This document shows positions 5,068 to 20,962 of a stretch of DNA of 64,000 nucleotides, piece after piece. Below the pieces are notes generated by a model, which worked only from the letters and a program-made list of their open reading frames with translations, was not told where the DNA came from and did not search any database. The position numbers and the translations under genes are program-made. Each line of letters starts with the position of its first letter. The first letter of the stretch is position 1. The stretch is from Gammaproteobacteria bacterium (GTDB lineage Bacteria; Pseudomonadota; Gammaproteobacteria; Eutrophobiales; Eutrophobiaceae): NCBI GenBank assembly GCA_026710545.1, contig JAPOQU010000055.1:41312-105311 (forward strand). Reading direction: 5' to 3'.

Positions 5068-6279
5068 ATGGTTACAACAAGTCATAATTTCACACCCTTT
5101 ATTCCTGACGATGTGGCATTAAACCGGTCTGACTTGCCGGATTTAGTGATATCAATGGTGGGCGCTGATGCGCAACTGGCTGGACATTTGACGGAAGTGA
5201 CAAAAGCAACGATTCGTCAATATATGGAAGTTATAAATTCATATTATTCGAACCTGATTGAAGGTAATCATACGCAACCGTACGAAATCCGCGCCGCACA
5301 AAGAGGTAAGTATCACGATGATCCGATCAAAAGAGATTTACAGAAGGAGTCCGTTGCGCATATACACGTTCAGAAGTGGATCAAGCAACAAGTCCTAGAC
5401 CAGAATACGATATATTCGAGCGATTTTCTAAAGGCCCTGCACAGGGAATTTTATACACAACTCCCTGAACGCATGTGGGAAATCAAGGATGATGAAGGAA
5501 ACACAAAGGGAAAGATCATACCGGGAGAATGGCGTACGGATACTGTCAAGGTTGGCCTGCACGTCCCCCCGTCTGCAGACAATCTGGAATCACTGATGCA
5601 ACAGTTTTGCGAGATATACCATCCCCGAAGGTACTCCGGAGAGAGAAAATATATCGCTCTTATGTGTGCGCATCACAGGTTTGTCTGGGTTCACCCGTTC
5701 CTTGACGGAAATGGAAGAGTCGCCAGGTTATTTACGGACGCTGCGCTCTCCAGTCTCGGATTGAACAGTGTAGGCGTATGGTATATCAGCCGAGGCGTAG
5801 CCAGGGCAGCAAATGGTTATAAGGGGTTACTGGCGCGCGCCGATTTCCCCCGTCAAGGTATGCATGATGGTCGCGGTTTGTTAAGTCAGGAAAACCTGGT
5901 GGATTTTTGTCGATTCATGCTTGCTGCCGCGATTGACCAGATAACGTACATGACCAGGTTGCTTGACCTGGGACAGATACAAAAAAGGATTTCCAGATAC
6001 ATACAAGCGCGAAATGACAACCGGGTCCCGGCAATCAGCGCTGAAATCAAGGAAATAGCATCACTGGTCCTGTACCAGGCGTTTATACACGGGGAATTGG
6101 AACGGCAAATGGCGTATGAACTGTGCGGCATGTCTGAGCGAAGCGCCCGCAGGTTGCTTGCGCAATTAAAGGAAGAAGGCCTGTTGACTGAAACATCATC
6201 ACGGTCACCGCTCAAGTGGTCAATCCCTGAACATGCGGAACCCTGGTACTTCCCTGAGTTAGTGCCAGGCCAGGTGTAG
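5068..6279 (+). CDS. Fic/DOC family protein (probable AMPylating toxin/effector)
   Basis: 403-aa ORF with canonical Fic motif HPFLDGNGRVARLF (HxFx(D/E)GNGRxxR). Gene and leader are AT-rich relative to the flanks. Confidence 0.85.
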   Translation: MVTTSHNFTPFIPDDVALNRSDLPDLVISMVGADAQLAGHLTEVTKATIRQYMEVINSYYSNLIEGNHTQPYEIRAAQRGKYHDDPIKRDLQKESVAHIHVQKWIKQQVLDQNTIYSSDFLKALHREFYTQLPERMWEIKDDEGNTKGKIIPGEWRTDTVKVGLHVPPSADNLESLMQQFCEIYHPRRYSGERKYIALMCAHHRFVWVHPFLDGNGRVARLFTDAALSSLGLNSVGVWYISRGVARAANGYKGLLARADFPRQGMHDGRGLLSQENLVDFCRFMLAAAIDQITYMTRLLDLGQIQKRISRYIQARNDNRVPAISAEIKEIASLVLYQAFIHGELERQMAYELCGMSERSARRLLAQLKEEGLLTETSSRSPLKWSIPEHAEPWYFPELVPGQV

Positions 6280-6293
6280 CTGACATTCTGTTT

Positions 6294-7760
6294 TCAGCGT
6301 TCGTAGGATTCCCGGCGGGAGGATTCGGACAGGGGTACCAGGTATTTCTCCGGGTTGCTGAGTATCTTCGCGCGCGCTGCCTGCAGCGTGGCTTCGCCCG
6401 CATAGCTGACGGACGAGCGCAGGTGGCCGCGCACGCGGTGCAGGATGTCGTTGACGCTGCCTTTGTACGGCACCTGTATTTCCTGGCCTTCGGGCGGGGT
6501 ATCGAGCGCGGCGTCGGTCGCTTCCGCGTTCTCCGGGTCATAGAGTGATTCCAGCACCGCTTCCGGTGAGGTCATGCCGCGGTAAATCTTCTTCTTGGTA
6601 TGGGTGACGGGGTCTTCGATGACCCTGCCGGGCGCCTCGTCGGTGCCGGACAATGCGCTGCCCAGCATGACCGTAGTTGCACCGCACACCAGGGCGAGAA
6701 AGATGTCCTTGTCCGTCTTGATGCCGCCATCGGCCATGATGGGGATTGAATCGCCCAGTGCCTTCCAGGTTTCGCGTATCGCCTGTAACTGCGGCACGCC
6801 GGCTGCGGTTTCCAGGCGGGTACGGCAGCCGCGGCCCGGCCCCACGCCGACCTTGACCGCGTCCGCGCCGATGTCCCGCATGAAGCGCGCCCCCTCGGCG
6901 GTGGCCACGTTGCCGCACACCAGGGGTACGCCGCCGAAGCGGCCGCGGAATCGTTCAACGGCCTCTTCCATCACCGTCGAATGGCCGTGGGCAATGTCGA
7001 TGAACAGGCAGTCAGCTCCTGCTTCCAGCAGTGCCGCACTACGGTCGAGGTAATCGCCCCGTGCGCCGATCGCGGCAGCAACCAGCAGGTGTCCCTTGTC
7101 ATCCTTGCTGGAGTAGGGACGTTCCCGCAGGGAAAAGATATCGCGACGCGTGATCAATCCGTGGATGCGTCGCTCGGCATCTACCAGCGGCAGGCGCTCG
7201 ATGCGATGTTCAAACAGTATCTTCGAGGCCTGTTCGATGGAAATCCCGGGTTTGTCGACAACCAGCCGGTCGAAAGAAGTCATGAAACGCTCCACAGGCT
7301 GGTCATCGTAGTCGCTGTTCCAGGGCATATCCCGCTGCGACAGCAGGCCGGCCAGGATATTGCTGCCGGGTTCCGTCTCGATCAGAATGCCGGTAATTGA
7401 ATGATTATGAGCGAAATTCCTGGCCTGCTGAATGGTAGTGCCCAGCGGCAGGCACAAGGGCTGATTGATGACCGCGCTCTGGCTGCGTTTTATCTGCGCT
7501 ACCTTGCGCGCCTGTCTCTCGATGGTCATGGCGCGATGGATCACGCCGATACCGCCTTCCATCGCCATCGCCCTGGCCATGTCCGCGCCGGTCACGCTGT
7601 CCATATTGGACGAGACGATGGGCAGTTCCAGGGAGATATGGCCGGTCAGTACACTAGCCAGACTGATGTCCCGGCGCGAGCCCGCCATCCCTTTTTGCGG
7701 GCGAAACAGGAAGTCGTCGAAGGTTTTTCCGACCCAGGATACATTATCTAAAGGTGTCAT
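6294..7760 (-). CDS. IMP dehydrogenase family protein (IMPDH/GMP reductase fold with CBS pair; non-canonical catalytic loop)
   Basis: 488 aa, clearly alignable to GuaB (GGIGVIH, CBS pair, ...GNVATAEGAR...ADAVKVGVGPG). The catalytic loop reads GVGPGRGCRTR rather than the canonical GIGPGSICTT (from memory), so this is probably a paralog rather than housekeeping guaB. GC-rich, core-like. Confidence 0.8.
   Translation of the reverse strand: MTPLDNVSWVGKTFDDFLFRPQKGMAGSRRDISLASVLTGHISLELPIVSSNMDSVTGADMARAMAMEGGIGVIHRAMTIERQARKVAQIKRSQSAVINQPLCLPLGTTIQQARNFAHNHSITGILIETEPGSNILAGLLSQRDMPWNSDYDDQPVERFMTSFDRLVVDKPGISIEQASKILFEHRIERLPLVDAERRIHGLITRRDIFSLRERPYSSKDDKGHLLVAAAIGARGDYLDRSAALLEAGADCLFIDIAHGHSTVMEEAVERFRGRFGGVPLVCGNVATAEGARFMRDIGADAVKVGVGPGRGCRTRLETAAGVPQLQAIRETWKALGDSIPIMADGGIKTDKDIFLALVCGATTVMLGSALSGTDEAPGRVIEDPVTHTKKKIYRGMTSPEAVLESLYDPENAEATDAALDTPPEGQEIQVPYKGSVNDILHRVRGHLRSSVSYAGEATLQAARAKILSNPEKYLVPLSESSRRESYER
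6297..6334. repeat. direct repeat copy B (gcgttcgtaggattcccggcgggaggattcggacagg), overlapping the last codons of the IMPDH-family gene
   Basis: Pairs with 4889-4925. Confidence 0.8.
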
Positions 7761-8177
7761 GAAGAACTTAGAAGATTAGACAGTGCTGGAGTGTCAGCTT
7801 GTTGATGATATGATACAGTTAACCGTGGCCAATCTATCAATTCTCACAGCTTTGATCAACGTCCGCATTCTAATTTTATCTTTGGTATTAGGAAACTTTG
7901 TAGTGTCTAAATACGTAAGCTTCATGCGAAATGATACATGCTTGATGATAGTCATGTCATCACTTAACGATTTATCAGTATTTGCTGCGTATTTATTATT
8001 AGTCAAACGTGTAATGACGCGCACACAATCAGGTAAATTATCGGAACGATACATTTGGGTGCTGGAGCAGAAAAAATGTGGATTTACTACTCGTCATCAA
8101 TTTGCTGCTCACCTTGCAGTAACAAAAAAAGTTATCCCAATCGAAATTTCATAGATGCCGAGAAGCAAATTATTTCT

Positions 8178-9674
8178 ATGAATGTTTTAGTTACTTTCAC
8201 AGGGTTCCATGATCCATACAGCCTAGGGTTAGTTGGGGAGGAGCAACAGGCTGGCCCGATCGTTTCCTTGGTAAGTGCAAAATCATTCGACCATGTAATA
8301 TTGATTTCTACGCTGAATACGAAGGAAAACACGACAGCGACGGAATCTGTACTCAAAGAGTTGAATCCTGAAGTGGGTATCTTAATCATCGAAGCTGGTT
8401 TGAGCGACCCTACGGATTATGCAGAAATATTAAATTTACTTCGCACCAAACTTTTGCCAAAATTAAATTTATTTGAAACACAGATAAACCTCTTTGTTGC
8501 TGTTGCGTCTGGTACACCACAAATGCACGCAGCATGGTTACTCTTGGTATCAAGCGGCGAAATACCTGCTCGAATTTTGCATATCAGACCAGCTCGATTT
8601 GTAACCACGGATAAACCTCTCGTAAGTGAAATCGACCTTTCATCGAAAGAGTTTCCTGAGGTTCGGAGTATTAGCTTGTCGAGACTGGAGTCTCCCGACA
8701 CGGCACTAGATGTCAACAAACTCATCCAATCGTTAGGAATTGTGGGTGACCACCCTGAACTCTCGAAAGCGCTTGATATATCAGCTACGCTCGCCTCCTC
8801 GAGTGTGCCAATTCTATTACTTGGAGAGACCGGAACTGGCAAAGAGTTACTGGCCAGATTCATCCACTTGGCCAGTGGCCGACCTAAGGATTGCTTCGTA
8901 GCAATCAACTGCGCAGCAATTCCTAGAGACTTGGTTGAGAGCATACTATTTGGTCACTGTAAAGGCGCCTTCACGGGAGCAGTATCCGACCAGAAGGGCA
9001 AATTTGCACAAGCAGATGGTGGCACGTTGTTTCTGGATGAACTTGGGGAACTACCGTTAGATACACAAGCGAAGTTGCTACGTGTTTTACAAGAAGGGCA
9101 GATTGAACCTGTCGGCACTGGTGAACCTCATAACGTAGATGTACGATTGATTGGTGCAACAAATGTCGACCTGCCTCGATCCATAAAGCAGGGTAACTTT
9201 CGTGAGGATCTCTATTACCGCTTGAATGTTGGCGAGATCCGCTTGCCACCGCTCAGGGAACGCCGTAGCGATATTCCGAAAATCGCACTCACATTGCTAG
9301 ATAAGGTAAATACAAGTCTGAAAGCGCCGAAACGACTGACCACAGGCGCGCTACAGCGATTACAGGCGCATGATTGGCCTGGAAACATTCGAGATCTGTC
9401 GAACACAATTGAGCGTACCGCACGACTAACACGCTCTGCGGTCTTAGATACAGACGATCTCATATTTGGCGAACCAGTAATCCATGCGGAGCCTTGGTCA
9501 ACATTACCAGAGCCAGCCGAGGGTTTTTCATTGGAGAATTTTCTATCTGATGCGCGAAAGCAGATTGTGATGCGGGCGCTGAAGATTAGCGGTGGTAATC
9601 AGAGTAAGGCAGCGCTCCTTCTTGGATTGACCCCCCAAGCCGTACACAAATATGTACAGAAGAATAGAACATGA
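8178..9674 (+). CDS. RtcR-like sigma54-dependent transcriptional activator (N-terminal CARF domain + AAA+ sigma54-interaction domain + C-terminal HTH)
   Basis: Start chosen at MNVLVTFTGF (ATG 8178); the longest ORF runs from 8055. Central domain has Walker A GETGTGKELLARFIH, the GAFTGA sigma54-contact motif and ESILFGH. C-terminal Fis-type HTH (QSKAALLLGLTPQAVHKYV). The N-terminal ~230 aa aligns with my recollection of the E. coli RtcR CARF domain (VLVTFTGFHDPY ~ VAFGFVGTVLDY; ASGTPQMHAAWLLLVSSGEIPARILHIRP ~ TTGTHVAQICWFLLAEARYLPARLIQSSP). Confidence 0.8.
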   Translation: MNVLVTFTGFHDPYSLGLVGEEQQAGPIVSLVSAKSFDHVILISTLNTKENTTATESVLKELNPEVGILIIEAGLSDPTDYAEILNLLRTKLLPKLNLFETQINLFVAVASGTPQMHAAWLLLVSSGEIPARILHIRPARFVTTDKPLVSEIDLSSKEFPEVRSISLSRLESPDTALDVNKLIQSLGIVGDHPELSKALDISATLASSSVPILLLGETGTGKELLARFIHLASGRPKDCFVAINCAAIPRDLVESILFGHCKGAFTGAVSDQKGKFAQADGGTLFLDELGELPLDTQAKLLRVLQEGQIEPVGTGEPHNVDVRLIGATNVDLPRSIKQGNFREDLYYRLNVGEIRLPPLRERRSDIPKIALTLLDKVNTSLKAPKRLTTGALQRLQAHDWPGNIRDLSNTIERTARLTRSAVLDTDDLIFGEPVIHAEPWSTLPEPAEGFSLENFLSDARKQIVMRALKISGGNQSKAALLLGLTPQAVHKYVQKNRT

Positions 9675-9685
9675 TTTTAACCAAG

Positions 9686-9702
9686 GTTTAAATAATTTAA
9701 AC
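9686..9702. promoter_or_regulatory. perfect palindrome GTTTAAATAATTTAAAC (7-3-7), 12 bp after the regulator stop
   Basis: Seen directly. AT-only, so not an intrinsic terminator. Candidate UAS/IHF-type site ~90 bp upstream of the sigma54 promoter. Confidence 0.35.
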
Positions 9703-9789
9703 TTCCATTGAAAATGGGTGATATCCAAAAATAAGCTTTGTTTAGATAACTACTTGAAAATAAATGAAATAAATATTTGTTGCGAAATG

Positions 9790-9805
9790 TGGCATAGCAT
9801 TTGCT
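9790..9805 (+). promoter_or_regulatory. sigma54 (RpoN) -24/-12 promoter TGGCATAGCATTTGCT
   Basis: GG (9791-92) and GC (9803-04) have exactly the consensus spacing of TGGCAC-N5-TTGCW, with one mismatch. Located 40 bp upstream of the ATG at 9845, with a GAGGAG Shine-Dalgarno in between, and immediately downstream of a sigma54 activator gene. Confidence 0.65.
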
Positions 9806-9844
9806 TTATCAGGGTATGACATCTTAGCCCAGAGGAGAAAAGCG

Positions 9845-10129
9845 ATGACACAGTTTAGAGTTTCAAAAATAATTGACGGGGATACATTCGAAGTGGCAGA
9901 GGGCTGGGAGTGGCATGGCAAAACCGGCTCAAGGGTGCGGCCTACCGGATATAACGCCCCGGAGTTACATACCGCTGCCGGGCAGTTGGCGAAACAAAAG
10001 CTCACAAGATTAATCCAGGGTGAGATAGTTAGTTTTGGAGAGGCTTATAGGATTGACCGTGGCCGTATTGTCTGCGTCGTGTATTATAATGGTCGTAATT
10101 TGGCGGACTATTTCAGAGAGTATCAATAA
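9845..10129 (+). CDS. thermonuclease (SNase/micrococcal nuclease) family protein, short form
   Basis: 94 aa with IDGDTFEV...RPTGYNAPE...GE.V.F...D.RGR.V..VY.NG.N, paralleling the SNase IDGDT / DxPE / YGR motifs. The Ca-binding Asp equivalent to SNase D40 appears replaced by Asn (YNAPE). First gene after the sigma54 promoter. Confidence 0.55.
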   Translation: MTQFRVSKIIDGDTFEVAEGWEWHGKTGSRVRPTGYNAPELHTAAGQLAKQKLTRLIQGEIVSFGEAYRIDRGRIVCVVYYNGRNLADYFREYQ

Positions 10130-10143
10130 CTCTCGCGAGGGAT

Positions 10144-12423
10144 ATGACGAAAGACACCACCAAAGAAACCGATGCTAGGATCGCCATTGATGACTGGCTA
10201 CGTCAGGCAGGTTGGGAGCCTTCAGATAAGTCTCAGGTCCAGACCGAGGTAAAGGCCAGTGGTGGTTTCGGTGGTATAGCTGATCCTGGGAGCGCTAGCG
10301 AACCTGGCGCTCTACATACATCTGATGGGGATGTTTTGCTTAGCGGCCGTGCTGACTACGTTTTGCTCGACCAGCGCGGGCAGCCCCTTGCGGTGGTCGA
10401 GGCAAAAAGGAAGGCCATCCATCCCTATGTAGCCAAACAACAAGCGCTCCCCTATGCCAAACAACTTGGTGCGCCGTTCATCTTTCTGACCAACGGTGAA
10501 CTGATCTACTTCTGGGATTATCAGAACGATGATGCCCGCATCGTCAACTCATTCTTCTCCCGTCGTGACATGGAGCGACTTGTGCATATGCGTAGTGAAC
10601 GCATGCCGCTCGCGACGATTGATATCCCTGACTACTTTACCCGCCAAGGTGAAACTCGCGAATTACGCCCATATCAGCGGGATGCTATGCGGGCTATGGA
10701 TCGCGCATTGGAACTTGGAAAGCGCCGTTTTCTGATCGAGTTGCCCACTGGTACGGGCAAGACCGACCTCATTTGTCAGTACATTCAACGGCTGATGCAG
10801 GCAGGACATGCGGAACGCGTCCTGTTTCTGGTTGACCGGGAACAGCTTGCTAAACAGGCTCTTGAGGCAATCACCGATCTGCTTGGTCATTACAGTCACT
10901 ATTGGCTCAAGCCCGGCATAGTACGCACCGAGCAGCAGATCACTGTTTGCCTGTTGCAAACCATGATCGGCCGTTACCATGAATACACTAGTGGTTATTT
11001 CGATATCGTCATCGCGGACGAATGCCACCGTTCCATATATGGTACCTGGCAGTCGGTATTGACCCATTTCGATGCCATTCATATCGGTTTAACTGCTACA
11101 CCGGCAGCATATATCGAGCGCAATACCTTCAGTTTCTACCAGTGCAAAGATAATACGCCAGATTTTTCTTATCCTATCCAAGACGCTTTCCAAAATGATT
11201 ATCTAGTACCCTACCGCTTCGCCGAAGGTATTACCGAGATAATCGCAGAAGGCGCGGACGTCGATGAGGAGCACTATGACCCCGCCGAGTTCGAGCGTAA
11301 GTGGACCAACGAAAAGACCAATCGTCTGATGATGGAGGAGTTTGACAAGCTGGCTTGGCAGAACTATCAAAGCCTGGCGCCAGGCCAGAAACCCGCACCG
11401 GGGAAGTCCATTGTATTTGCCATCACCAAACACCATGCCGCACGTCTGGCTCAGTATCTCAACGACTTGCATCCAGAATACAACGGACACTATGCTGAGG
11501 TGATCACCAGTGATGTGCAGAATACGGATGAACTGATCCGCAAGTTCAAGCGCGAGGATTACCCGCAAGTAGCCGTGAGTGTCGGTATGCTGGATACTGG
11601 TTTCGATTGCCGTGAGATCCTCCACTTAGTGATGTGTCGACGTGTGCGTAGTCCCATTCTCTATCAGCAGATGCGCGGGCGAGGTACGCGCACAGCACCG
11701 CATATCAGTAAGGGGAAGTTTGTGATTTACGACTTCTTTCGTAACCATCAGTACTTCAACGATAGCGATACAGATATCTTTATCGGTACGGGTACAGGCC
11801 ATGTTCCGACGATCCGTAAACCAAAGAGCATGTCCCAACGTGATCTCATTGAACTGGGGCTCGAAGATGAATGGTTGGAAGCAGTTAACTATGTCGAAGT
11901 GGGGCCCCAAGGAGAGCGCATCGACAAGCGTCAATACGTCACCGACTGGGAAAATACCGTTCGTGATGCCGTTGTGCACGATCCGATTATCAGGAAAATT
12001 CGATCGGGCAATTTGCTCAGTGATGGTGAAGAGCAGCAACTTGCTGTCCGACTCAACCAACCCGAACGCTACTTCAATGAAGAAAACCTGCGTCGTGCCT
12101 ATCGCAATCCGGGCGGCTCGCTGGTGGACTTCATTCGTGCAGCGCTGGGCCAGCAGAAGATCAAGAGCCGCGAAGAAACAGTGGACGAGAACTTCCGAGC
12201 CTGGCTGGTTACCCGCAACCTCAGTGCCGAGCAGGCACAGTACCTGGCTATGCTGAAAAACCGTGGTATTGCACGTGGCAAGCTAGCGCTGGACGATCTG
12301 TTTCAACCGCCACTCTCCATACTCAATGCCGCAAACCTCGGAATAGAATTCTTTGGCGAGCAGGGACTGAAAAAGGTCGTTGATGAAATGAACGATACAT
12401 TATTTAGCAGCGACAATAGATGA
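10144..12423 (+). CDS. hsdR: Type I restriction enzyme R subunit (HsdR), compact 759-aa form
   Basis: N-terminal restriction-endonuclease fold (VLLDQRGQPLAVVEAKRK) followed by SF2 helicase motifs: Q LRPYQRDAMRAM, I LPTGTGKT, II DECHRS, III LTATP. Immediately followed by hsdM and hsdS. Confidence 0.8.
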   Translation: MTKDTTKETDARIAIDDWLRQAGWEPSDKSQVQTEVKASGGFGGIADPGSASEPGALHTSDGDVLLSGRADYVLLDQRGQPLAVVEAKRKAIHPYVAKQQALPYAKQLGAPFIFLTNGELIYFWDYQNDDARIVNSFFSRRDMERLVHMRSERMPLATIDIPDYFTRQGETRELRPYQRDAMRAMDRALELGKRRFLIELPTGTGKTDLICQYIQRLMQAGHAERVLFLVDREQLAKQALEAITDLLGHYSHYWLKPGIVRTEQQITVCLLQTMIGRYHEYTSGYFDIVIADECHRSIYGTWQSVLTHFDAIHIGLTATPAAYIERNTFSFYQCKDNTPDFSYPIQDAFQNDYLVPYRFAEGITEIIAEGADVDEEHYDPAEFERKWTNEKTNRLMMEEFDKLAWQNYQSLAPGQKPAPGKSIVFAITKHHAARLAQYLNDLHPEYNGHYAEVITSDVQNTDELIRKFKREDYPQVAVSVGMLDTGFDCREILHLVMCRRVRSPILYQQMRGRGTRTAPHISKGKFVIYDFFRNHQYFNDSDTDIFIGTGTGHVPTIRKPKSMSQRDLIELGLEDEWLEAVNYVEVGPQGERIDKRQYVTDWENTVRDAVVHDPIIRKIRSGNLLSDGEEQQLAVRLNQPERYFNEENLRRAYRNPGGSLVDFIRAALGQQKIKSREETVDENFRAWLVTRNLSAEQAQYLAMLKNRGIARGKLALDDLFQPPLSILNAANLGIEFFGEQGLKKVVDEMNDTLFSSDNR

Positions 12424-12442
12424 CAGAAGGTGGTAACAACGC

Positions 12443-14095
12443 ATGAACCGCAGTTTACGAAGAAAGCTGGATCACATCACTGATGTCCTCTGGGCAGGTG
12501 GTGTTACTAATCCGGTTACCTATATTGAGCAGATCTCTTATTTGATCTTTCTGAAGTTGTTGGATGAGGAGGAACAGGACCGTGAACTGCGCGTTCGCCT
12601 CAGAGCCGCTAGTGGCAACGCTAAACTGTTGTTCCCCCAGCAGGCCGAACGTTATCGCTGGTCCAAGTGGCGTTTCATGAGCGGACCAGAGCTTCGCGAC
12701 TTCATCCGGGACGAAGTATTCCCTTACTTGGCATCGATAGCCAAAGATGAGCCTGAAGTGGCCGAGTATTTCCGCGATGCCGTGTTGGAGATTGTAGACC
12801 CTAATGTGCTGAAGCAGGTGGTGGACGAGATCGATACTTTCGAATTTCGCAAGCTTGGGCCAGACGTCAAAGGCGATATCTTCGAATATTTATTAACCCA
12901 TCTTGGTCAGTCGTCCCTGAATGGACAGTTTCGCACACCGCGCCAGATCCGTTCTTTCATGGTGGAAATGGTCGATCCAGAACTGGGTGATTCCGTTTTC
13001 GATCCAGCATGTGGAACAGCCGGTTTTCTTATAGACACAGTAGACTATCTGCTTGCTAAGTACAGCGAGACAGTACAAGAATATCCTATCTACGGCGAAG
13101 ACTGGTTGGAGAAGCGTGGACAGACTCTCGCTGAAGCTAGAAAAGAAATACCAAATCTCCAAACCTATCGCAAGGGTACAGGTGAAAAAATTCCAGACTG
13201 GAGCATGCTCGAAGCCTCGATTTTTGGCGTGGATGTTTCTCGTCAGATGATGCGCATAAGCATGATGAATCTCATACTACACAGCGTACGTCGAGCAAGG
13301 CTTAAACGCGGCAATTCATTGTCGGACCACGGAGGACTTACGGAGGAGGATTTATCGCGTCGCTACAAAGTGATACTGTCCAATCCGCCCTTCGCTGGAC
13401 AGATCCCGAAGGATTCCATCCGCTCAGACCTCTACACTAGTTCCAGGAAAAGTGAATTGCTCTTTCTGGGCTTAATGATGGAACATCTCGCCCCAGGTGG
13501 CCGTTGCGCTGTTGTGGTGCCGGAAGGTTTGCTGTTCGGCTCTACCAGCGCGCATAAGAATCTCCGAAAGAAACTTGTTGAGGATTTCGCTCTGCTCGCC
13601 GTGGTTTCTCTGCCAGCGGGTGTGTTTAGACCTTATGCGGGAGTAAAGACCAGCGTGCTGGTTTTCTGCAAACCCCAAAACGGAGGCAAGATAGAGAAAG
13701 CAGAGAAGATTTGGTTCTATGAGGTTTGCAACGACGGCTATGACCCCGACAAGATCTCTGATGGTGGTCGTGTGGAAACCCCCAACCTCAACGAGATTCC
13801 TGACCTACTCGCCAAATGGCAGGAGTACAAAGCATCTAAGTTCGATAATCCGCCTGGTGTGGAAGCCAATAGAATTCTGGAACCGGGGAATGAAATACCG
13901 CGATGTTGGTGGGCGGACGTGAAGACATTGGCGATTAATGATTTTCATTTGGCAGCGGGGCGTTACAAGCCGCAGGTCGCAGAAGCGGTACCAGAAGAAG
14001 ATCCGCTAGAATTAATAAAAGATACTTTAATAGTCGAAAAGGAGCTAACCCGAGGGCTTGAAAGATTGTTGCAAGAATTGGAAGCATCCCAGTGA
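12443..14095 (+). CDS. hsdM: Type I restriction-modification N6-adenine DNA methyltransferase subunit (HsdM)
   Basis: 550 aa; SAM motif I FDPACGTAGFL and catalytic motif IV NPPFAG; HsdM N-terminal domain. Confidence 0.9.
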   Translation: MNRSLRRKLDHITDVLWAGGVTNPVTYIEQISYLIFLKLLDEEEQDRELRVRLRAASGNAKLLFPQQAERYRWSKWRFMSGPELRDFIRDEVFPYLASIAKDEPEVAEYFRDAVLEIVDPNVLKQVVDEIDTFEFRKLGPDVKGDIFEYLLTHLGQSSLNGQFRTPRQIRSFMVEMVDPELGDSVFDPACGTAGFLIDTVDYLLAKYSETVQEYPIYGEDWLEKRGQTLAEARKEIPNLQTYRKGTGEKIPDWSMLEASIFGVDVSRQMMRISMMNLILHSVRRARLKRGNSLSDHGGLTEEDLSRRYKVILSNPPFAGQIPKDSIRSDLYTSSRKSELLFLGLMMEHLAPGGRCAVVVPEGLLFGSTSAHKNLRKKLVEDFALLAVVSLPAGVFRPYAGVKTSVLVFCKPQNGGKIEKAEKIWFYEVCNDGYDPDKISDGGRVETPNLNEIPDLLAKWQEYKASKFDNPPGVEANRILEPGNEIPRCWWADVKTLAINDFHLAAGRYKPQVAEAVPEEDPLELIKDTLIVEKELTRGLERLLQELEASQ

Positions 14096-15348
14096 AGTGG
14101 ACTACTACAACAATACAGCGAGTTTCGCAACAAACACAAGTGTGTAATCCTCGGGAACGTCAAGAAAGTCTGTTTAAGTATATAGATATATCATCAATTG
14201 ACCGCGATAAAAAAATTATTTCGCAGGCACCTGAAATAAAGGGAGCCAAGGCCCCAAGTCGCGCACGGAAAGAAGTAAATGCGGGTGACATCTTAGTATC
14301 CACTGTCAGGCCAAACTTGAATGCTGTGGCAATCGTACCGCCTGAATTGGACAGCCAAATCGCTTCTACTGGTTTTTCAGTCCTGCGTCCGGAAAGTGAT
14401 CTTATAAATGGACGTTATCTGTTTTATTTTGTCCAGACGTCTGGTTTTATTGATGCTTTGACGTCGAAAGTAAGAGGAGCCCATTACCCTGCAGTTTCAG
14501 ATACTGATGTAAAGAATGTTGAGCTTCCATTGCCTACGATAGCCGAACAACATCGCATCGTCGAAATTCTCGATCAGGCCCATGCTCTGCGTAAGAGTCG
14601 CACAAACGCTGACACTAAAGCTGTCCGCATCCTACCTGCATTGTTCTATCAGATGTTTGGCGATCCGTTATTGAATACCAAGGACTTTGAAAGAGTTTGC
14701 CTTGGCGACGCTGGTATTGCTGAGATCAATCCTCGGGCACCATCCCGAGACTTACCTAATGATCTGGAAGTTAGCTTCGTTCCAATGGCTGATGTAAATG
14801 AGGATTGGGGGCAGATTACTGGTTGCCAAATTAAGGAGCTAGGTGAAGTTAAGAAAGGATTTACTTCTTTTTTGGAGAACGATGTTCTATTTGCCAAAAT
14901 CACACCCTGTATGGAAAATGGAAAGGCTGCCATAGCTAGAGGACTCGGTAACGGATTGGGTTATGGTTCCACAGAATTTCATGTATTGCGAGCAGGAGAC
15001 CTGGTTACCCCAGAATGGATTTATGGGTTGACTAGACTGGACATTTTTAGAAATGTCGCAAAAGGAAATTTTATCGGTTCGGTGGGCCAACAGCGAGTAC
15101 CCGCTGACTTTTTGCGCAGTTTTCGCGTTCCTCTCCCTCCAAAAAAATTAATAGAAAAATTTTCAATTGTTGTGCGCGAGCTTCTTCAAGAGAACGATTA
15201 TAGGCGAGAGGCAGAAAAAAGAATTTCACAGTTAGTTCAAATAACAATGCATCATGCGTTTTCAGGAAAGCTGACTGAAGGCTGGCGAAGAGCCCACCTG
15301 AAGGAGGAGTTCCAAGAAATAGAGCACCAAGCGAGAGCAGGTACTTAA
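14092..15348 (+). CDS. hsdS: Type I restriction-modification specificity subunit (HsdS)
   Basis: 418 aa with two target-recognition domains separated by conserved central and distal repeats. Start overlaps the hsdM stop. Confidence 0.85.
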   Translation: MKWTTTTIQRVSQQTQVCNPRERQESLFKYIDISSIDRDKKIISQAPEIKGAKAPSRARKEVNAGDILVSTVRPNLNAVAIVPPELDSQIASTGFSVLRPESDLINGRYLFYFVQTSGFIDALTSKVRGAHYPAVSDTDVKNVELPLPTIAEQHRIVEILDQAHALRKSRTNADTKAVRILPALFYQMFGDPLLNTKDFERVCLGDAGIAEINPRAPSRDLPNDLEVSFVPMADVNEDWGQITGCQIKELGEVKKGFTSFLENDVLFAKITPCMENGKAAIARGLGNGLGYGSTEFHVLRAGDLVTPEWIYGLTRLDIFRNVAKGNFIGSVGQQRVPADFLRSFRVPLPPKKLIEKFSIVVRELLQENDYRREAEKRISQLVQITMHHAFSGKLTEGWRRAHLKEEFQEIEHQARAGT

Positions 15349-15363
15349 GGAATTTTTGAGGAT

Positions 15364-17034
15364 TTGATAATGATAAAAACGCTCTTCACCGGCAACTTCA
15401 AAGCCTTCGCCGAGACCCAACGAATTCCAATCAGACCGATTACAATGATCTTTGGTCCAAATAGCGCTGGTAAATCGAGCTTCATCCATAGCTTAGCGCT
15501 AGCGAGCGAAGCCGAGCGTACCGGACGGTTGGATGTATTCAAAACTGAGGTCGGCGGTAGTGCCATCGACCTGGGTGGATTCCGGCAGTACATCCATCGT
15601 GGCGAGGCAAAGCGTCGAATGGAATGGGGTGCAGAGTTAGATGTGTCATCACTTCAGGGTCGGCTAGAGGAACTTCTGGCTCCAGTCAATACGCTCAAAG
15701 TGGTTATGTTCACAGGTGTGGCACTGGACAACGAAGAACGACCGTTAGTAAGCGCCGAACCGGCTGTTACAGGATACGAGTTATTCGGAGATGACCAACT
15801 CCTATTGCGCATGAGTCGTCGGCCGGATGGGAAACTGCGGCTGGACCGGCTGAACCACGAGCACTTGGTCTTTCGTGAGGTTCTTAAGGCTATCGTCACT
15901 ACTGCAACCACAACGAACACTGTTACAAAGGAGGATTTCGAGGGGATTGACGACGTCATCAACGTTATGGTGCCTCGACTGAGTATAGGGGTGACTAAAC
16001 TGTTCCCCGAAGGGCTGACTGATCGGCGTGTCGATAATGAGGAACAGGAGCAAGCCACATTGTTTCCGGTTAGCAAGGGCAATCGGAGTGAGGACCTTGC
16101 TAATGCGATCAATTTCTTTCTGCCAAAGACACTTGATGAACTCATCATGGGGACTAGCCAGATTCTGGCGCAGGAACTCAAGAAACTGCAATACCTTGGT
16201 CCTCTCCGTTCTTTTCCGCCCCGGCACTTGGCCTTTTCGGAACACGAGGACGCAAACTGGTACGCAGGTGGCGGTTACGCTTGGGATATTGTACGCAGGG
16301 ACGACACGGTTCGCTCTGCGGTCAATGAATGGCTGGGATCGGAGGTATTGAAGACACCGTATGAACTTGTAGTCCGTCAGTTGGTGGGTATCAGCGATTT
16401 AGATCCTGTATTGGAGGAAGGCCTTGAGACGATCATTGATGACGGGGTGGAAATTGAGCATGAGCCGGAGTCCGAGTATACGGGTGGCGGAGCCTATCCG
16501 ATACTCCGGGATTCGGAGGCAGAGGCACGTCGTCTTCAAGAGTTGATCCAGACGTCCGATTTGAAAAAGCTCAAGGAGCTGGTCCTTATTGACAGACGAT
16601 CCAATACGGTGGTGTCACACCGTGATGTGGGGATCGGTATTACCCAGGTACTGCCTGTGCTTGTGTTGGCCTATGCATCTACAGACAAATTGATCGCCAT
16701 GGAGCAGCCGGAAATTCACCTACACCCTGCGCTACAGGCAGAGTTAGGTGACGTATTCATTAATTCGGCGTTGGGAGGGCGCGGCAATCGATTCATACTG
16801 GAAACTCACAGTGAGCACCTCCTTTTACGTATTATGCGTCGTATGCGAGAAACAGATGAACAAATGTTACCGGAAGGCACTAAGCCGATACATCCTGAAG
16901 ATGTGATGGTTCTTTACGTCGAGCCAGATGGTGGTCGTAGTATTGTGCGCGAGATGCCATTGAATGCCCGGGGCGAACTGGTAAAAGCGTGGCCAGGCGG
17001 TTTCTTCGAAGAAGGTCTACGGGAGATATTCTAA
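15364..17034 (+). CDS. ABC-type (AAA_21/AAA_15-like) ATPase, first gene of a two-gene module
   Basis: 556 aa. Walker A FGPNSAGKSS at residues ~29-38; Walker B/D-loop LIAMEQPEIHLHP; H-loop ETHSEHLL near the C-terminus, with a long inserted region between. This is the architecture of ATPases from OLD/Septu/AbiL/PARIS-type defence modules. Starts 16 bp after the hsdS stop. Confidence 0.8.
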   Translation: MIMIKTLFTGNFKAFAETQRIPIRPITMIFGPNSAGKSSFIHSLALASEAERTGRLDVFKTEVGGSAIDLGGFRQYIHRGEAKRRMEWGAELDVSSLQGRLEELLAPVNTLKVVMFTGVALDNEERPLVSAEPAVTGYELFGDDQLLLRMSRRPDGKLRLDRLNHEHLVFREVLKAIVTTATTTNTVTKEDFEGIDDVINVMVPRLSIGVTKLFPEGLTDRRVDNEEQEQATLFPVSKGNRSEDLANAINFFLPKTLDELIMGTSQILAQELKKLQYLGPLRSFPPRHLAFSEHEDANWYAGGGYAWDIVRRDDTVRSAVNEWLGSEVLKTPYELVVRQLVGISDLDPVLEEGLETIIDDGVEIEHEPESEYTGGGAYPILRDSEAEARRLQELIQTSDLKKLKELVLIDRRSNTVVSHRDVGIGITQVLPVLVLAYASTDKLIAMEQPEIHLHPALQAELGDVFINSALGGRGNRFILETHSEHLLLRIMRRMRETDEQMLPEGTKPIHPEDVMVLYVEPDGGRSIVREMPLNARGELVKAWPGGFFEEGLREIF

Positions 17035-17036
17035 GG

Positions 17037-17969
17037 ATGTTGCTCGCTGAGTATGCGATAACTCCAGACGTATTTGATGCGACGTCCTATGTCAACGAGG
17101 ATCTATGTGCTGCACGATTGGAGCTCATTCGCGAGGTAATGTTAAATGAGGGCGTGATACGCGATCTTAGAAATGGAAGCTGGTCTAACTTGTTCAGAAG
17201 TGACCATCGCTCCTGGCATCGTAGAGCTAAGGAGCTTGCCAAAAAGCTAGCCTCACAAAATAGATTAAGACCCTTTGTGCCACAGCTGGCAGTGAAGCCA
17301 TCCGTAGATTCAGAGTGGTGTGATGAGGCGTTGGTTACTCATGGGATCGAACCCTTGACAGGTATCATTGTAACGGACACGATTTCAGACGGCTACATAG
17401 GGAATCCCCTTGTTTCAAGGGTCGATAGATTGAACAGCGCTCCATGGTGGAGCGGAAGAAAACCATCCATGCGCCTCAATAGAACATTTACAGATTATCT
17501 AAACGCATTGTCATTGGTACTGAGACATGCCAACTCCATTATGTTTATTGACCCGCATATAGATCCGACTCAGCCCAAGTACAATGATTTTATTGAATTG
17601 ATAAAGAGAGCGGGCAATCGCAACCCATTACCATTGATTGAGATTCATCGAGTTTGTTATCGTGGCTCGGGACAACATAGGAAGATATTAGATCTTCAAC
17701 AATTGGAGGCTAGTTTCAGAAATGAACTTACCCAACCACTGCAGAGAGTGGGCTTGACTGCTGAAATTTTTGTCTGGGATGATTTTCATGACAGATATGT
17801 CTTAAGTAATCTAGTAGGAATTGCGCTCCTTAATAGTCTCGATACAACAATTATGCAAAATTCAACAACGACCTGGACTCGTTTAGGCCACAAAGACAGG
17901 GATGATGTGCAAAGAGAATTTGACCCAGCAAGTAATCAGCATAAATTAAAGAAGAAGTTCGCAATTTGA
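17037..17969 (+). CDS. hypothetical protein (311 aa), partner of the ABC ATPase
   Basis: ATG 2 bp after the ATPase stop, so translationally coupled. The longest ORF is 16989-17969. Acidic clusters (IMFIDPHIDP, VWDDFHDRY) could belong to a metal-dependent nuclease (TOPRIM/DUF4435-like?), but I cannot assign a domain from sequence. AT-rich. Confidence 0.6.
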   Translation: MLLAEYAITPDVFDATSYVNEDLCAARLELIREVMLNEGVIRDLRNGSWSNLFRSDHRSWHRRAKELAKKLASQNRLRPFVPQLAVKPSVDSEWCDEALVTHGIEPLTGIIVTDTISDGYIGNPLVSRVDRLNSAPWWSGRKPSMRLNRTFTDYLNALSLVLRHANSIMFIDPHIDPTQPKYNDFIELIKRAGNRNPLPLIEIHRVCYRGSGQHRKILDLQQLEASFRNELTQPLQRVGLTAEIFVWDDFHDRYVLSNLVGIALLNSLDTTIMQNSTTTWTRLGHKDRDDVQREFDPASNQHKLKKKFAI

Positions 17970-20962
17970 TTACCACTTTCTTCAAGATTCTGGTTTATGT
18001 ATTGGCTACGTTGATACTGCCTGCTATCGGGTTAGCAGCGGATGAGGTCATTGAGGAAGTTGTGGTAACCGGTTCCCACATCAAGGGCGCCCACGCGGAT
18101 GAGTCCCTGCCGGTCACCAGCCTGGCGAGGGATGACCTGGCTTACGAAGGCTCTCCCACCATAATCGACCTCATCAAGAACCTGTCTTTCAGCCAGGGAG
18201 CGGACGGCGAATCCGACTTCTTCCAGGCCGGCGCCGGACCCGACCGGGCAACGGCGAACCTGCGCGGGCTCGGACCCAGCCGCACCCTGGTGTTGCTCAA
18301 CGGGCGCCGCACCACATGGTCGCCCCATGCGATCAGCGCCCAGGCCCAGTTACTGGTGGACGTGAATATGCTGCCGTCGGTCGCCCTGGAACGGGTCGAG
18401 ATATTACGCGAAGGCGCCGCATCCACCTATGGTTCCGATGCTATAGCAGGAGTAATGAACTACATCACCCGCAGCGATTTTTCGGGGGTGGAGGTCTCGG
18501 CTGACTACAAGGGCATCGATGGTTCTGCCGGCGATGCTGCAGCAGGCATTATCCTCGGTGCCGACCTGCTGCAAAACCGGGGTCACGCGGTCAGCTCCTT
18601 CGGTTATATGAGGCGCAGCCGGCTCGAACTCATCAAACGTGACTGGGCGGTAGTGCCCTATGAGCAGAGTCCCCTGGGCGGCTGGTCCAGCATCGGCCGG
18701 CCGTCAGTTGTAGTGCCCCTGGAGCGCTGGCAGGCAGCGCCCGTGGGTGGTTTCACCGGTATGCTGGCAAGCGGTATCGTCGACCCGAACTGCGAAAAAC
18801 TCGGCGGCGCCCGTACCCACCAGGGTGTGCTGGGTAATCCGGACGGTGGTTTCTGCCATTTCCAGTATACGCCGTTCTACAGCCTGGCCGAGAAAACAGA
18901 GCGCTGGCAGTGGTTCACGGAACTCTCCCTGGAGGTGAATGATTCCACTACGCTGTCCGCTGAATTGCTCATGACGGACAGCCGCGTGCCCTCGCTGCAT
19001 ACCTCACCGTCTTATCCGCCCAACCGGTTGATCGACGAGAACCGGACCATACGCGCAAATCATCCCGGACTGGTCGACATGGCAAGCAAATACCCGGACC
19101 TGTACGGCGACTATGCCTGGTGCGACAGGGACTATTGTCGCTGGGACGGGGATCCGGAGCAGTCTCTGGCAGGTATTCCCCCGGCCTGGCAGGAGGTGGC
19201 CTGGTTCTTCGGCCGCTCCTACGGTCAGGATGGTCCGGTGCGCGGCACCGATCAGCAGACCGGGTTGTGGCGGGCGAACCTGGCCCTGGACGGTTCGTTC
19301 GCCGACTACGACTGGACTGTGGCGGCTACCTGGTCCGGATCGAAAAGAACATTCCATGCCGGCGATACGATGGTGTACCGGGACGCCAGGGCGCGCCAGG
19401 GACTTGCCGGTGCGGAGTGCGAGCAACTGGCGCCCAACCAGTATGACGAGGACGGCAGGATATTTTTTTCGCTGGAAACACTCATGACCCATGCCGGGCA
19501 GGGGCCCTGCCGGTACTGGACGCCTTTTTCCAATTCCATGGCAGGTTCACACCCGCGTGTTCCCGACGGTCTTGCAGCAAACCCCGACTATAACCCGGCA
19601 TTGAATAACCAGGAAATCTACGACTACATTGTGAACGACGATTACGGCAACCGCGGCAAGACGTCGCTGTTGGTGCTGGATGCCGTGTTTTCAGGCATCC
19701 TGCCCTGGTGGAGTCTGCCGGGTGGCGGCTTGAACTTTGCGGCCGGGTTCCAGTGGCGTAGCGAAACCTATAAAACCAACCCCCTCGGATTCAGTAATTT
19801 CGAGCTGTTCCCCTGTGCGGCAGGTCCCGAGATAGCTGACTGTACGATCGATCGCAACGGCCTCTACAGTTTCCTGGCTCCCGGGTTTCCCATCGATGAA
19901 GAACGTGATATCTATTCCTTCTTCGGCGAACTGCAGGCGCCCGTGACCGATGACCTGGAAGCTCATTTTTTCCTGCGCTACGAGGATTATGGCGGTTCAG
20001 TCGGCGCAAGCATCGACCCGAAGGTACACGTACACTGGCAGGCATTGCCCGGCATCGGTTTGCGCGCCTCTGTCGGCACAACCTTCCGCGGACCCACGCT
20101 GAACCAGATTGTTTCTTCCAATTCTTCGAATTCATTTCAATACGTGGCCTCGACCGCTGCTTTCAAGCGCATAGACACCAAGGGCAATCCACAGCTTGAT
20201 CCCGAAGAAGCCATCACGATCAATGCGGGGGTATTAATCGACCACGACAATCTCTTCCACGACGGGGACTACCTGACACTCAGTGCCGATTACTGGTCAT
20301 ACGACTTTGAAAAACCGCTGGTGACCGAACCCTATAACGCGGTGCTTGAGCGCGGCTGCCCCGGCGCTGTTACCGACCCCTGCGATGTATCCAGTCCCTA
20401 TTTCGAGCGGCTGTCCTTCGCCGGCAGTCCGGTCGCCGCCAATGTCGAGATTATCGACATCAACATCATCAACGGCCCCGATATCAAGACCGACGGCATC
20501 GACTTCAGCGGACTTTACTCCGCACCGGTGGGCCCCGGTCAGTTCAGCGCCGGTTTCAACGGCACGAGAATCCTGGGCTACGACATCGACGCCTGGGAAC
20601 TGGGAGAGGCCTACAACGCACTCGGCCGGTTGAACTACACCACGTCCCTGGCGCGTACCCTGGTCAAGCTGAAGTTGCGGGGTTTCCTGAACTACGCCTG
20701 GAAATCGTTAAATATGCGCTACGGCGTCAGTTATGCAGACGATTATGTAGACATTGACAGGAAAATCGACAGCCACGTCACCCACGATATACACGCAAAC
20801 TACAGGCTGTTGCAGGACCGGCTGGAACTCTGGGTTTCGGTCGTCAACCTGCTGGATGAAGACCCGCCGTTTGTACCCCGGGAGATGAACTACGATCCGT
20901 TTACCCACGACCCGTACGGACGTACGTTCAAGGTCGGTATTCGCTATAGAATGGGCGAATAA
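17966..20962 (+). CDS. TonB-dependent outer-membrane receptor
   Basis: 998 aa. Signal-peptide-like N-terminus, then plug-domain motifs (EEVVVTGS, LRGLGPSRTLVLLNGRR, ERVEILRE, YGSDAIAGVMNYITR) and a long beta-barrel. The ATG overlaps the preceding stop (ATGA). The first ~60 nt are AT-rich and the rest GC-rich. Confidence 0.85.
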   Translation: MITTFFKILVYVLATLILPAIGLAADEVIEEVVVTGSHIKGAHADESLPVTSLARDDLAYEGSPTIIDLIKNLSFSQGADGESDFFQAGAGPDRATANLRGLGPSRTLVLLNGRRTTWSPHAISAQAQLLVDVNMLPSVALERVEILREGAASTYGSDAIAGVMNYITRSDFSGVEVSADYKGIDGSAGDAAAGIILGADLLQNRGHAVSSFGYMRRSRLELIKRDWAVVPYEQSPLGGWSSIGRPSVVVPLERWQAAPVGGFTGMLASGIVDPNCEKLGGARTHQGVLGNPDGGFCHFQYTPFYSLAEKTERWQWFTELSLEVNDSTTLSAELLMTDSRVPSLHTSPSYPPNRLIDENRTIRANHPGLVDMASKYPDLYGDYAWCDRDYCRWDGDPEQSLAGIPPAWQEVAWFFGRSYGQDGPVRGTDQQTGLWRANLALDGSFADYDWTVAATWSGSKRTFHAGDTMVYRDARARQGLAGAECEQLAPNQYDEDGRIFFSLETLMTHAGQGPCRYWTPFSNSMAGSHPRVPDGLAANPDYNPALNNQEIYDYIVNDDYGNRGKTSLLVLDAVFSGILPWWSLPGGGLNFAAGFQWRSETYKTNPLGFSNFELFPCAAGPEIADCTIDRNGLYSFLAPGFPIDEERDIYSFFGELQAPVTDDLEAHFFLRYEDYGGSVGASIDPKVHVHWQALPGIGLRASVGTTFRGPTLNQIVSSNSSNSFQYVASTAAFKRIDTKGNPQLDPEEAITINAGVLIDHDNLFHDGDYLTLSADYWSYDFEKPLVTEPYNAVLERGCPGAVTDPCDVSSPYFERLSFAGSPVAANVEIIDINIINGPDIKTDGIDFSGLYSAPVGPGQFSAGFNGTRILGYDIDAWELGEAYNALGRLNYTTSLARTLVKLKLRGFLNYAWKSLNMRYGVSYADDYVDIDRKIDSHVTHDIHANYRLLQDRLELWVSVVNLLDEDPPFVPREMNYDPFTHDPYGRTFKVGIRYRMGE

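Follow-up and report, generated by a model that had tools for sequence, protein, structure and literature searches.

The window analysed here is a 64,000 nt stretch of a gammaproteobacterial contig (JAPOQU010000055.1, positions 41,312 to 105,311). At 8178–17969, on the plus strand, it carries a gene for a CARF-AAA+-helix-turn-helix (HTH) activator followed by six co-directional genes, encoding a small staphylococcal nuclease (SNase)-like protein, the three subunits of a Type I restriction-modification (R-M) system, an ATPase and an uncharacterised partner. The most probable reading, at roughly 0.8, is that this is a Type I R-M and accessory defence operon of conserved layout, controlled by sigma54 and the CARF activator and working, by analogy, in the manner of RtcR. 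The sequence evidence for a sigma54-promoted operon headed by a CARF activator is very strong. The coordinates and distances that an earlier prediction from the sequence alone (the original prediction) had assigned to the regulator, the promoter and the six downstream genes are correct, and the genes do lie head-to-tail with gaps or overlaps of −4 to +19 nt (14, 19, −4, 15 and 2 nt, counted from the end of the first operon gene). The regulator, its control region and the first operon gene comprise the following features:

8178–9674, plus strand: CARF-AAA+(GAFTGA)-HTH bacterial enhancer-binding protein, 'RtcR_PspF2' family (Pfam, PADLOC, NCBIfam, AlphaFold2 (AF2)/Foldseek, HHalign)
8178–8657, plus strand: predicted CARF domain of the regulator, about residues 1–160 (AF2/Foldseek, HHalign)
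8739–9239, plus strand: sigma54-interaction AAA+ domain of the regulator, residues 188–354 (Pfam)
9558–9644, plus strand: Fis-type HTH of the regulator, residues 461–489 (Pfam)
9675–9692, no strand: predicted upstream activator sequence (UAS) dyad 1, TTTTAACCAAGGTTTAAA, consensus TTYAACC-NN-GGTTRAA, one mismatch, position conserved in relatives
9696–9713, no strand: predicted UAS dyad 2, TTTAAACTTCCATTGAAA, a degenerate copy with three mismatches, its centre 21 bp from that of dyad 1
9790–9805, plus strand: predicted sigma54 (−24/−12) promoter, TGGCATAGCATTTGCT, TGGCAT-N5-TTGCT (conserved GG-N10-GC, information profile)
9845–10129, plus strand: cytoplasmic mini-SNase (thermonuclease-fold) protein, 94 aa, first gene of the operon (AF2/Foldseek)

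The regulator begins at the methionine codon at 8178 in all homologues; its longest open reading frame (ORF) would begin at 8055. The central domain matches Sigma54_activat (PF00158) at E 1e-65 over profile positions 1–167 of 168, and the translation contains both GAFTGA (at 8964) and the Walker A motif GETGTGKE. AAA_lid_14 is also matched by Pfam, as is HTH_8 at the C-terminus (25.0 bits, cut-off 22), so that the full enhancer-binding architecture claimed for 8178–9674 is borne out. PADLOC assigns residues 1–496 to profile PDLC01995, 'RtcR_PspF2--CARF_AAA_HTH' (450 bits, E 2.4e-135, profile positions 1–478 of 481). The N-terminal 230 or so residues had been likened to the CARF domain of RtcR. 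Of this, the CARF assignment stood while the length did not, the domain covering only about 160 residues. Pfam RtcR (PF06956) scores 24.7 bits at the N-terminus against a gathering score of 23.1. An AF2 model of residues 1–190, built on 30 homologues (predicted local distance difference test, pLDDT, 87.4), was compared with the PDB by Foldseek: the top 50 matches are all CARF proteins, 45 matches have E ≤ 1e-3, and the best is cA6-bound Csm6 (E 1e-7), followed by Cam1, Card1, Cad1, Can2, Csa3 and ring nucleases. HHalign of the family's N-terminal profile with residues 1–200 of Escherichia coli RtcR gave a probability of 96.7%, aligning RtcR residues 28–167 at about 21% identity. The profile check that had been proposed for this domain supports the CARF assignment, and only CARF domains match the predicted fold. 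Two candidate ligand-pocket motifs of the CARF domain, TFTGF(H/Q)DP behind beta1 and SGTPQMH behind beta4, show little or no variation in the regulator family. On the modelled structure, the N-terminal domain is a CARF fold.

Likeness to RtcR extends over the full proteins, with 32% identity to the E. coli protein over residues 62–426. By sequence, however, the regulator is not an RtcR orthologue, because the NCBIfam RtcR equivalog NF038308 (319.6 bits) falls under its cut-off of 650 and no rtcA or rtcB lies adjacent. Its neighbours are an IMPDH gene on the opposite strand and the SNase/R-M operon; gene-family searches at the locus agree with the earlier statement that rtcB and rtcA are missing beside it. 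The PADLOC profile for RtcR proper reaches 224 bits, half the score of RtcR_PspF2.

The promoter at 9790–9805 lies 115 nt past the regulator stop and 39 nt ahead of the ATG at 9845, within a spacer of 170 nt, and the start of transcription of the operon is predicted at about 9815–9817. Within the window alone the sigma54 pattern is not significant, two matches being found with one mismatch allowed against 2.8 expected. The spacers of relatives were therefore gathered, as the intergenic regions from a full-length regulator gene to the next gene (an adjacent SNase or hsdR) in many phyla. All 55 homologous spacers carry GG-N10-GC with at least 9 of the 12 consensus positions (51 with at least 10), compared with about one among shuffled spacers, and nearly all have 35–61 nt between promoter and start codon. 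The near-consensus promoter of the original prediction is upheld by these relatives.

The two dyads, each of 16 bp, begin directly after the regulator stop and are centred at −106 and −85, counted from the promoter motif's first base. The pair, 21 bp or two helical turns apart, lies about 77 bp upstream of the sigma54 promoter. Searched with three mismatches, the dyad pattern shows no enrichment within the window. Among the 55 loci, 50 have at least two dyads, 45 of these spaced exactly 21 bp, while shuffled spacers give 0.01 loci. The dyads are likely to be the binding sites of the activator. A palindrome previously put forward as a UAS (GTTTAAATAATTTAAAC, 9687–9703) does exist, but its parsing was wrong, as it joins dyad 1's right half to the left half of dyad 2.

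In an ungapped information-content profile built from 23 non-redundant spacers, conserved positions are confined to the two dyads, a CAA-N4-TT element resembling an integration host factor (IHF) site, the promoter and the ribosome-binding site, the remainder having diverged. Such conserved islands in otherwise diverged spacers point to selection rather than recent common descent. The IHF-like element (an A/T-rich tract, then CAA-N4-TT) occurs in most relatives at about −41 to −16 from the promoter motif, some 20 nt upstream. Sigma70-like sites in the region are no more frequent than expected by chance; one 10/12 match overlaps the SNase start codon (9845–9873, plus strand).

Relatives were found by scanning one genome per species for the family CARF motifs; 151 hits were confirmed and 80 loci retained. 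These come from Gammaproteobacteria, Nitrospirota, Desulfobacterota, Planctomycetota, Acidobacteriota, Verrucomicrobiota, Gemmatimonadota, Cloacimonadota, Latescibacterota and others; none of the host phyla listed is actinobacterial or cyanobacterial, and sigma54 is common in all of them. By tblastn with the window proteins, the order regulator, small ORF, HsdR, HsdM, HsdS (with or without ATPase and partner) recurs in most loci and spans Gammaproteobacteria, Nitrospirota, Planctomycetota, Acidobacteriota, Verrucomicrobiota and others. Across these phyla HsdR and HsdM keep about 70% identity, which points to horizontal spread. Conservation of the linkage between regulator and R-M genes in related genomes, put forward earlier as a check, was therefore found across many phyla. 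Sampling in the reverse direction, from two members of the small-ORF family, led back to this neighbourhood, with Type I R-M genes downstream and, directly upstream, an RtcR-family activator; one of the two is in an ICE-like setting with ArdC-N, DUF3150 and HTH_17.

Downstream genes were counted in the 50 loci where the regulator is complete and is followed by 3 kb or more of sequence. A close HsdR (about 70% identity) is present in 32, a distant Type I HsdR (about 30%) in six, and other cargo in 12. The other cargo includes an Mrr-type endonuclease with DUF4007 and an Eco57I-like methyltransferase, a lone N6-methyltransferase, vWA proteins, Card1-like CARF nucleases, a serine/threonine (S/T) kinase, PP2C, and FtsK/HerA ATPases. 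The regulator and control region thus head varied restriction and defence cargo, and the mini-SNase gene is also present in about half of these loci. Overall, the regulator gene is directly followed by the mini-SNase gene in 38 of the 50 loci and the latter is absent in 12. The UAS and promoter are kept in all four SNase-less loci with an adjacent hsdR that were examined (L010, L048, L063 and L076); the eight with other cargo are mixed.

Several individual loci show further features. On a metagenomic contig (L085:5375-8329) the cassette lies just downstream of genes for ArdC-N (antirestriction), DUF3150 and DUF1257/DUF2997, with an excisionase-like HTH_17 gene overlapping the regulator start, which suggests that it is carried on an integrative/conjugative element. 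In the Pseudoalteromonas phenolica strain a1 chromosome (NZ_CP173161.1; L078:10001-19467) and in L044:3601-10934, the regulator, dyads, promoter and SNase-like module precede different cargo, namely a vWA protein, an unknown protein, an AAA ATPase, a Card1-like CARF-endonuclease and a PP2C phosphatase, joined in L044 by an S/T kinase. The second CARF protein in this cargo hints at a common cyclic-oligonucleotide signal. One regulator copy (L047; JAKPCO010000059.1, 2 kb) is on a contig assigned by binning to 'Methanobacteriota archaeon'; since a sigma54 activator is implausible in an archaeon, the assignment is probably mistaken.

The AF2 model of the mini-SNase has a pLDDT of 96.6, and every one of the 50 best structures that Foldseek found for it in the PDB is a staphylococcal nuclease (E 3e-5, TMq 0.67). 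Sequence profiles see less of this: Pfam PF00565 (SNase) does not match the window protein and matches 28 of 37 homologues weakly (best E 9e-4), and a profile search of PDB sequences with the SNase-like family found no significant match. The family has more than 526 clusters, several of them named 'endonuclease YncB (thermonuclease family)' by JGI. Its conserved residues (D11, D13, T14, R30, R32, D/N37, E40, D71, R72 and R74) fall in the motifs IDGDT, R-V-R-P, (D/N)-A-P-E and D-R-G-R, and by motif alignment rather than superposition D11/D13/T14, R32, D37, E40 and R74 correspond to D19/D21/T22, R35, D40, E43 and R87 of SNase. The protein has no signal peptide and is without the C-terminal helices of SNase. 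It is regarded here as a putative part of the control module because it is kept with the regulator when the cargo changes; its absence from 12 of 50 loci that have the regulator means that it is not indispensable for the switch.

By analogy with RtcR, the CARF domain would keep the AAA+ ring switched off, and its binding of a nucleotide-type ligand, produced during infection or nucleic-acid damage, would release the ring. A cyclic oligoadenylate is one candidate ligand; another is an RNA end bearing a 2′,3′-cyclic or 3′-phosphate. A small nucleotide such as a cyclic oligoadenylate is favoured since the nearest structures are cA6- and cA4-binding CARFs, since at least two of the alternative cargos hold a Card1-like CARF nuclease, and since RNA-repair genes are absent. 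From its sites at the dyads, the activator would contact the sigma54 holoenzyme by DNA looping, remodel it and fire the operon, probably assisted by IHF in the relatives. The mini-SNase would probably exert feedback on the signal, either as a source of the ligand or by removing it: it might yield 3′-phosphate products that serve as, or lead toward, the ligand, or open a cyclic one to a linear form. It might also bind the CARF domain, in the way that RtcA and RtcB bind that of RtcR. The Type I enzyme would restrict incoming DNA, with the ATPase and its putative PLD (phospholipase D)-like partner as a second-line module of the abortive-infection type.

Several points weigh against this reading. 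What is said here of the transcription start, of RpoN dependence, of binding by the activator and of inducibility is prediction from sequence. A strictly inducible hsdM would leave the chromosome unmethylated, and because of this self-restriction problem basal or internal-promoter expression of hsdMS, or restriction alleviation, has to be assumed; alleviation of the ClpXP type is known for Type I enzymes and would resolve it. In the window locus itself dyad 2 is degenerate, the IHF-like element is not evident in the AT-rich spacer (9749–9789), and the mini-SNase has N at position 37, the equivalent of the Ca2+ ligand D40 of SNase. An RpoN box motif does not occur in the 64 kb window, to which the search for rpoN was confined; no ligand-making enzyme (Cas10, CD-NTase) was seen in the island.

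A different account of expression is that the R-M genes are mainly constitutive, driven by internal or upstream sigma70 promoters (e.g., one at the 3′ end of hsdR for hsdMS), and that the sigma54 promoter only boosts them or mainly serves the SNase-like gene; the system would then be a usual Type I R-M that is always on, with a regulator added to it. This is less likely than not, yet a real contender. Continuous methylation is required by the host chromosome of a Type I system, and a few weak sigma70-like matches are present (e.g., 14891–14919, plus strand), though not above chance. Internal, RtcR-independent promoters were also expected by Bell et al. 2024 (PMC11090510). The gene gaps nevertheless leave no intergenic room for them, no conserved sigma70-like element was detected, and the UAS/sigma54 module, on which purifying selection is strong, stands immediately ahead of the R-M genes even in loci that lack the SNase gene (the four noted above). 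That the regulator is a genuine RtcR serving rtcBA elsewhere in the genome, and is beside the R-M genes incidentally, is very unlikely: Pfam RtcR is above its cut-off and some homologues are named 'RNA repair transcriptional activator RtcR family protein' by NCBI, but the equivalog and PADLOC scores, the missing rtcA and rtcB and the low identity of the CARF region to E. coli RtcR all speak otherwise, and the UAS and promoter face a defence operon in all 55 loci with an adjacent SNase or hsdR gene. A further explanation, that the promoter and palindromic sequences arose by chance in a spacer rich in A and T, would account for the lack of enrichment of the promoter and three-mismatch dyad patterns in the window alone; it is rejected as having next to no probability, given the conservation of sequence, spacing and position across phyla.

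The role of the mini-SNase is less settled. It could well be a plain DNA- or RNA-degrading effector against invaders, or a toxin, with no part in signalling; such a role falls short of probable but is a serious candidate, as most members have the predicted SNase fold and, by motif alignment, a full catalytic set, and the switch does not need a protein that is missing from 12 of 50 loci retaining the regulator. Its retention with the regulator through a complete change of cargo is, on the other hand, what would be expected of a control-module part, an unregulated, non-specific nuclease in the cytoplasm would be toxic, and the protein has only 94 aa and none of the C-terminal helices of SNase. 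Returning to the CARF-controlled defence operon, a bolder version of it, to be taken as speculative and on balance improbable, is that the regulator, dyads, promoter and mini-SNase form a portable sense-and-feed-back cassette for almost any defence cargo, the SNase-like protein being a new type of signal-processing nuclease for a CARF sensor. If so, the SNase would either generate a 3′- or cyclic-phosphate ligand (positive feedback, as with RtcA) or linearise a cyclic oligoadenylate (negative feedback, as an analogue of ring nucleases), and Type I restriction would be a pulsed, infection-induced response, not a constitutive barrier.

The arrangement had been thought undescribed, which proved incorrect: Makarova et al. 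2014 (PMC4012209), the PADLOC RtcR_PspF2 profile and Bell et al. 2024 (PMC11090510) precede it, and the functional prediction for this operon class was already reached independently in the 2014 and 2024 papers. Operons of the form regulator-HsdR-HsdM-HsdS-ATPase are tabulated in Supplementary File 4 of Makarova et al. 2014 (Front Genet), for example from Desulfobacterium autotrophicum HRM2, with HsdR(EcoEI_R_C) and an ATPase carrying pfam13476, pfam13304 and pfam12476 (DUF3696). The domain architecture of these RtcR_PspF-type regulators, their association with R-M genes and the gene order are as found here. Unlike the window, the tabulated examples consulted have no small gene between regulator and hsdR, and the promoter, the UAS and an SNase-like gene are not described in that paper, nor are any experiments reported. 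Bell et al. 2024 (eLife) described RtcR homologues at the head of co-directional defence superoperons around CoCoNuTs of Types II and III-A, including Type I R-M genes, proposed binding of the HTH to a UAS, and favoured RNA ends with 2′,3′-cyclic phosphate as the ligand by analogy to RtcR. These superoperons share with the alternative-cargo loci a 5′ RtcR-like CARF activator and vWA, S/T kinase and PP2C modules, and the same logic was proposed for them, in which CARF senses a nucleotide or RNA signal and sigma54 transcription follows. The window operon, by contrast, is without McrBC-type CnuB/C or CnuH and has only six genes, and nothing is said in that paper of an SNase-like gene, of a promoter that was mapped or of any UAS motif. 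Not found in Makarova 2014 or in Bell 2024 are the dyads of fixed spacing (21 bp, and about 77 bp to the promoter) with a universally conserved promoter, the mini-SNase as the usual first gene (38 of 50), and the unit of regulator and control region, whether or not the mini-SNase goes with it, heading varied cargo. No experimental study of the class of R-M operons headed by CARF enhancer-binding proteins was found in the searchable literature.

RtcR of E. coli and Salmonella is likewise a CARF-AAA+-HTH sigma54 activator with a homologous CARF domain. Deletion of its N-terminal domain yields a constitutive activator (Genschik 1998, as cited in Hughes 2020, PMC7790460). Products of the Rtc operon are reported to feed back on it, RtcA and RtcB binding the CARF domain (Kotta-Loizou 2022, PMC9650030; Hughes 2020, PMC7790460), and the SNase-like protein may be analogous in this respect. 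RtcR differs in that its targets are RNA-repair genes in a divergent operon, whereas here they are defence genes and co-directional, and the N-terminal TFTGF(H/Q)DP motif of the present family does not align with RtcR. Type I R-M systems with abortive-infection modules (EcoprrI-PrrC, RloC, and R-M-linked ATPases of the AriA/GajA/PtuA type) also have an ATPase gene appended to hsdRMS; compared with EcoprrI-PrrC and RloC-type loci, the partner in the window has no PADLOC match and no anticodon-nuclease domain, and sigma54 dependence is predicted. C-protein and WYL/BrxR-regulated defence systems are also headed by a dedicated regulator gene, but with sigma70 promoters and small HTH or WYL proteins in place of an ATP-driven enhancer-binding protein with a CARF sensor.

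Restriction-modification is usually taken to be a constitutive, methylation-based barrier. A Type I system dependent on sigma54 and CARF would instead be induced by a signal, which raises the question of host self-cutting at unmethylated DNA. The present analysis supplies testable parts, namely a defined promoter, two 16 bp dyads at fixed spacing and a 94 aa candidate signal processor, and P. phenolica a1, a cultured strain with a complete genome and the same control module, offers a practical experimental host. The control-region signature (dyad, 21 bp, dyad, about 77 bp, TGGCAY-N5-TTGCT) may be used to find new defence cargo.

The genes that follow the mini-SNase are:

10144–12423, plus strand: HsdR, EcoAI/EcoEI-like, with HSDR_N nuclease, ResIII/SF2 helicase and EcoEI_R_C (Pfam, NCBIfam, PADLOC)
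12443–14095, plus strand: HsdM, Type I N6-adenine DNA methyltransferase (Pfam HsdM_N and N6_Mtase; PADLOC MTase_I, 451 bits)
14092–15348, plus strand: HsdS, specificity subunit with two target-recognition domains (Pfam Methylase_S in two stretches; PADLOC Specificity_I)
15364–17034, plus strand: ABC/OLD-type ATPase (AAA_15/AAA_21, SMC_N head, DUF3696 tail; Pfam, PADLOC)
17037–17969, plus strand: 310 aa uncharacterised partner of the ATPase (homologue family; no Pfam, PADLOC or PDB match)

The hsdR, hsdM and hsdS ORFs are all intact and encoded together, as in a Type I R-M system. Two other assignments were considered and discarded. The MADS profiles mad2, mad3 and mad5 reach 127, 19 and 37 bits where their cut-offs demand 720, 420 and 400, and the Type I profiles score far higher. 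For a CoCoNuT superoperon, the six operon genes are without McrB, McrC or HEPN domains and there is no CnuH, the next gene being a TonB-dependent receptor gene of host-like G+C. In five relatives (L035, L036, L054, L063 and L074) the gap between hsdR and hsdM is about 450–520 nt, compared with 19 nt in the window, which suggests an additional small gene or an internal promoter region in those five.

The ATPase is similar to its ABC/OLD-type counterparts in PDC-M55, HEC-03, Nsn, PARIS, Gabija and Septu, with PADLOC matches to PDC-M55A (3e-42), HEC-03B (5e-40), NsnB (3e-38) and AriA (2e-19). AriA, GajA and PtuA are matched in part only, and there is no cognate AriB TOPRIM, GajB helicase or PtuB HNH partner. 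The true start of the 310 aa partner, judged from its homologues, is the ATG at 17037 (M17 of the ORF), 2 nt past the ATPase stop; the GTG of the ORF at 16989 overlaps the ATPase gene by 46 nt. The window protein has no match in Pfam, in PADLOC or in a profile search of PDB sequences. Its family (657 cluster representatives) has invariant H251 and R253 (H-x-R-x4-D...G...N), and seven of 33 members match MIT_C (PLD-like) weakly (best E 3e-4), so that the partner is possibly a PLD-like nuclease, which is offered as a lead. An ATPase homologue is found downstream in 22 of the 50 loci. In L050 the ATPase-partner pair is directly behind the regulator without R-M genes (more distant versions are in L023, L080 and L007), and the pair is therefore a separable module.

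The seven plus-strand genes form a block of about 10 kb between the IMPDH gene (6294–7760, minus strand) and the TonB-dependent receptor gene (17966–20962). The G+C content is 0.44–0.52 in this block and 0.55–0.62 in the flanks. Judged by its sequence, the block at 8178–17969 is a horizontally acquired defence island. No att-like repeats were found flanking it, and carriage on plasmids was not supported, as tblastn with the CARF domain gave no match in PLSDB. The small ORF at 7783–8154, upstream of the regulator, has no homologue in any related locus and is therefore probably not a gene of the module.

The TonB-dependent receptor ORF, which encodes a signal peptide at its first residues, begins 4 nt ahead of the last stop codon of the island, leaving no intergenic region, and the G+C content steps from 0.43 to 0.62 at this border. 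The island seems to have been inserted directly against the start of the receptor gene. Weak sigma70-like sites at 17754–17783 and 17920–17947, ahead of the receptor gene, are both within the last gene of the island. Farther along, a Dam-like D12-class N6-adenine DNA methyltransferase is encoded at 23636–24505 (minus strand), with no obvious restriction partner nearby. On the other side of the island, a gene for a Fic/DOC-domain protein (5068–6279) occupies a patch of low G+C (0.46–0.48) between the urate oxidase and IMPDH genes, and may be a further acquired gene beside the island.

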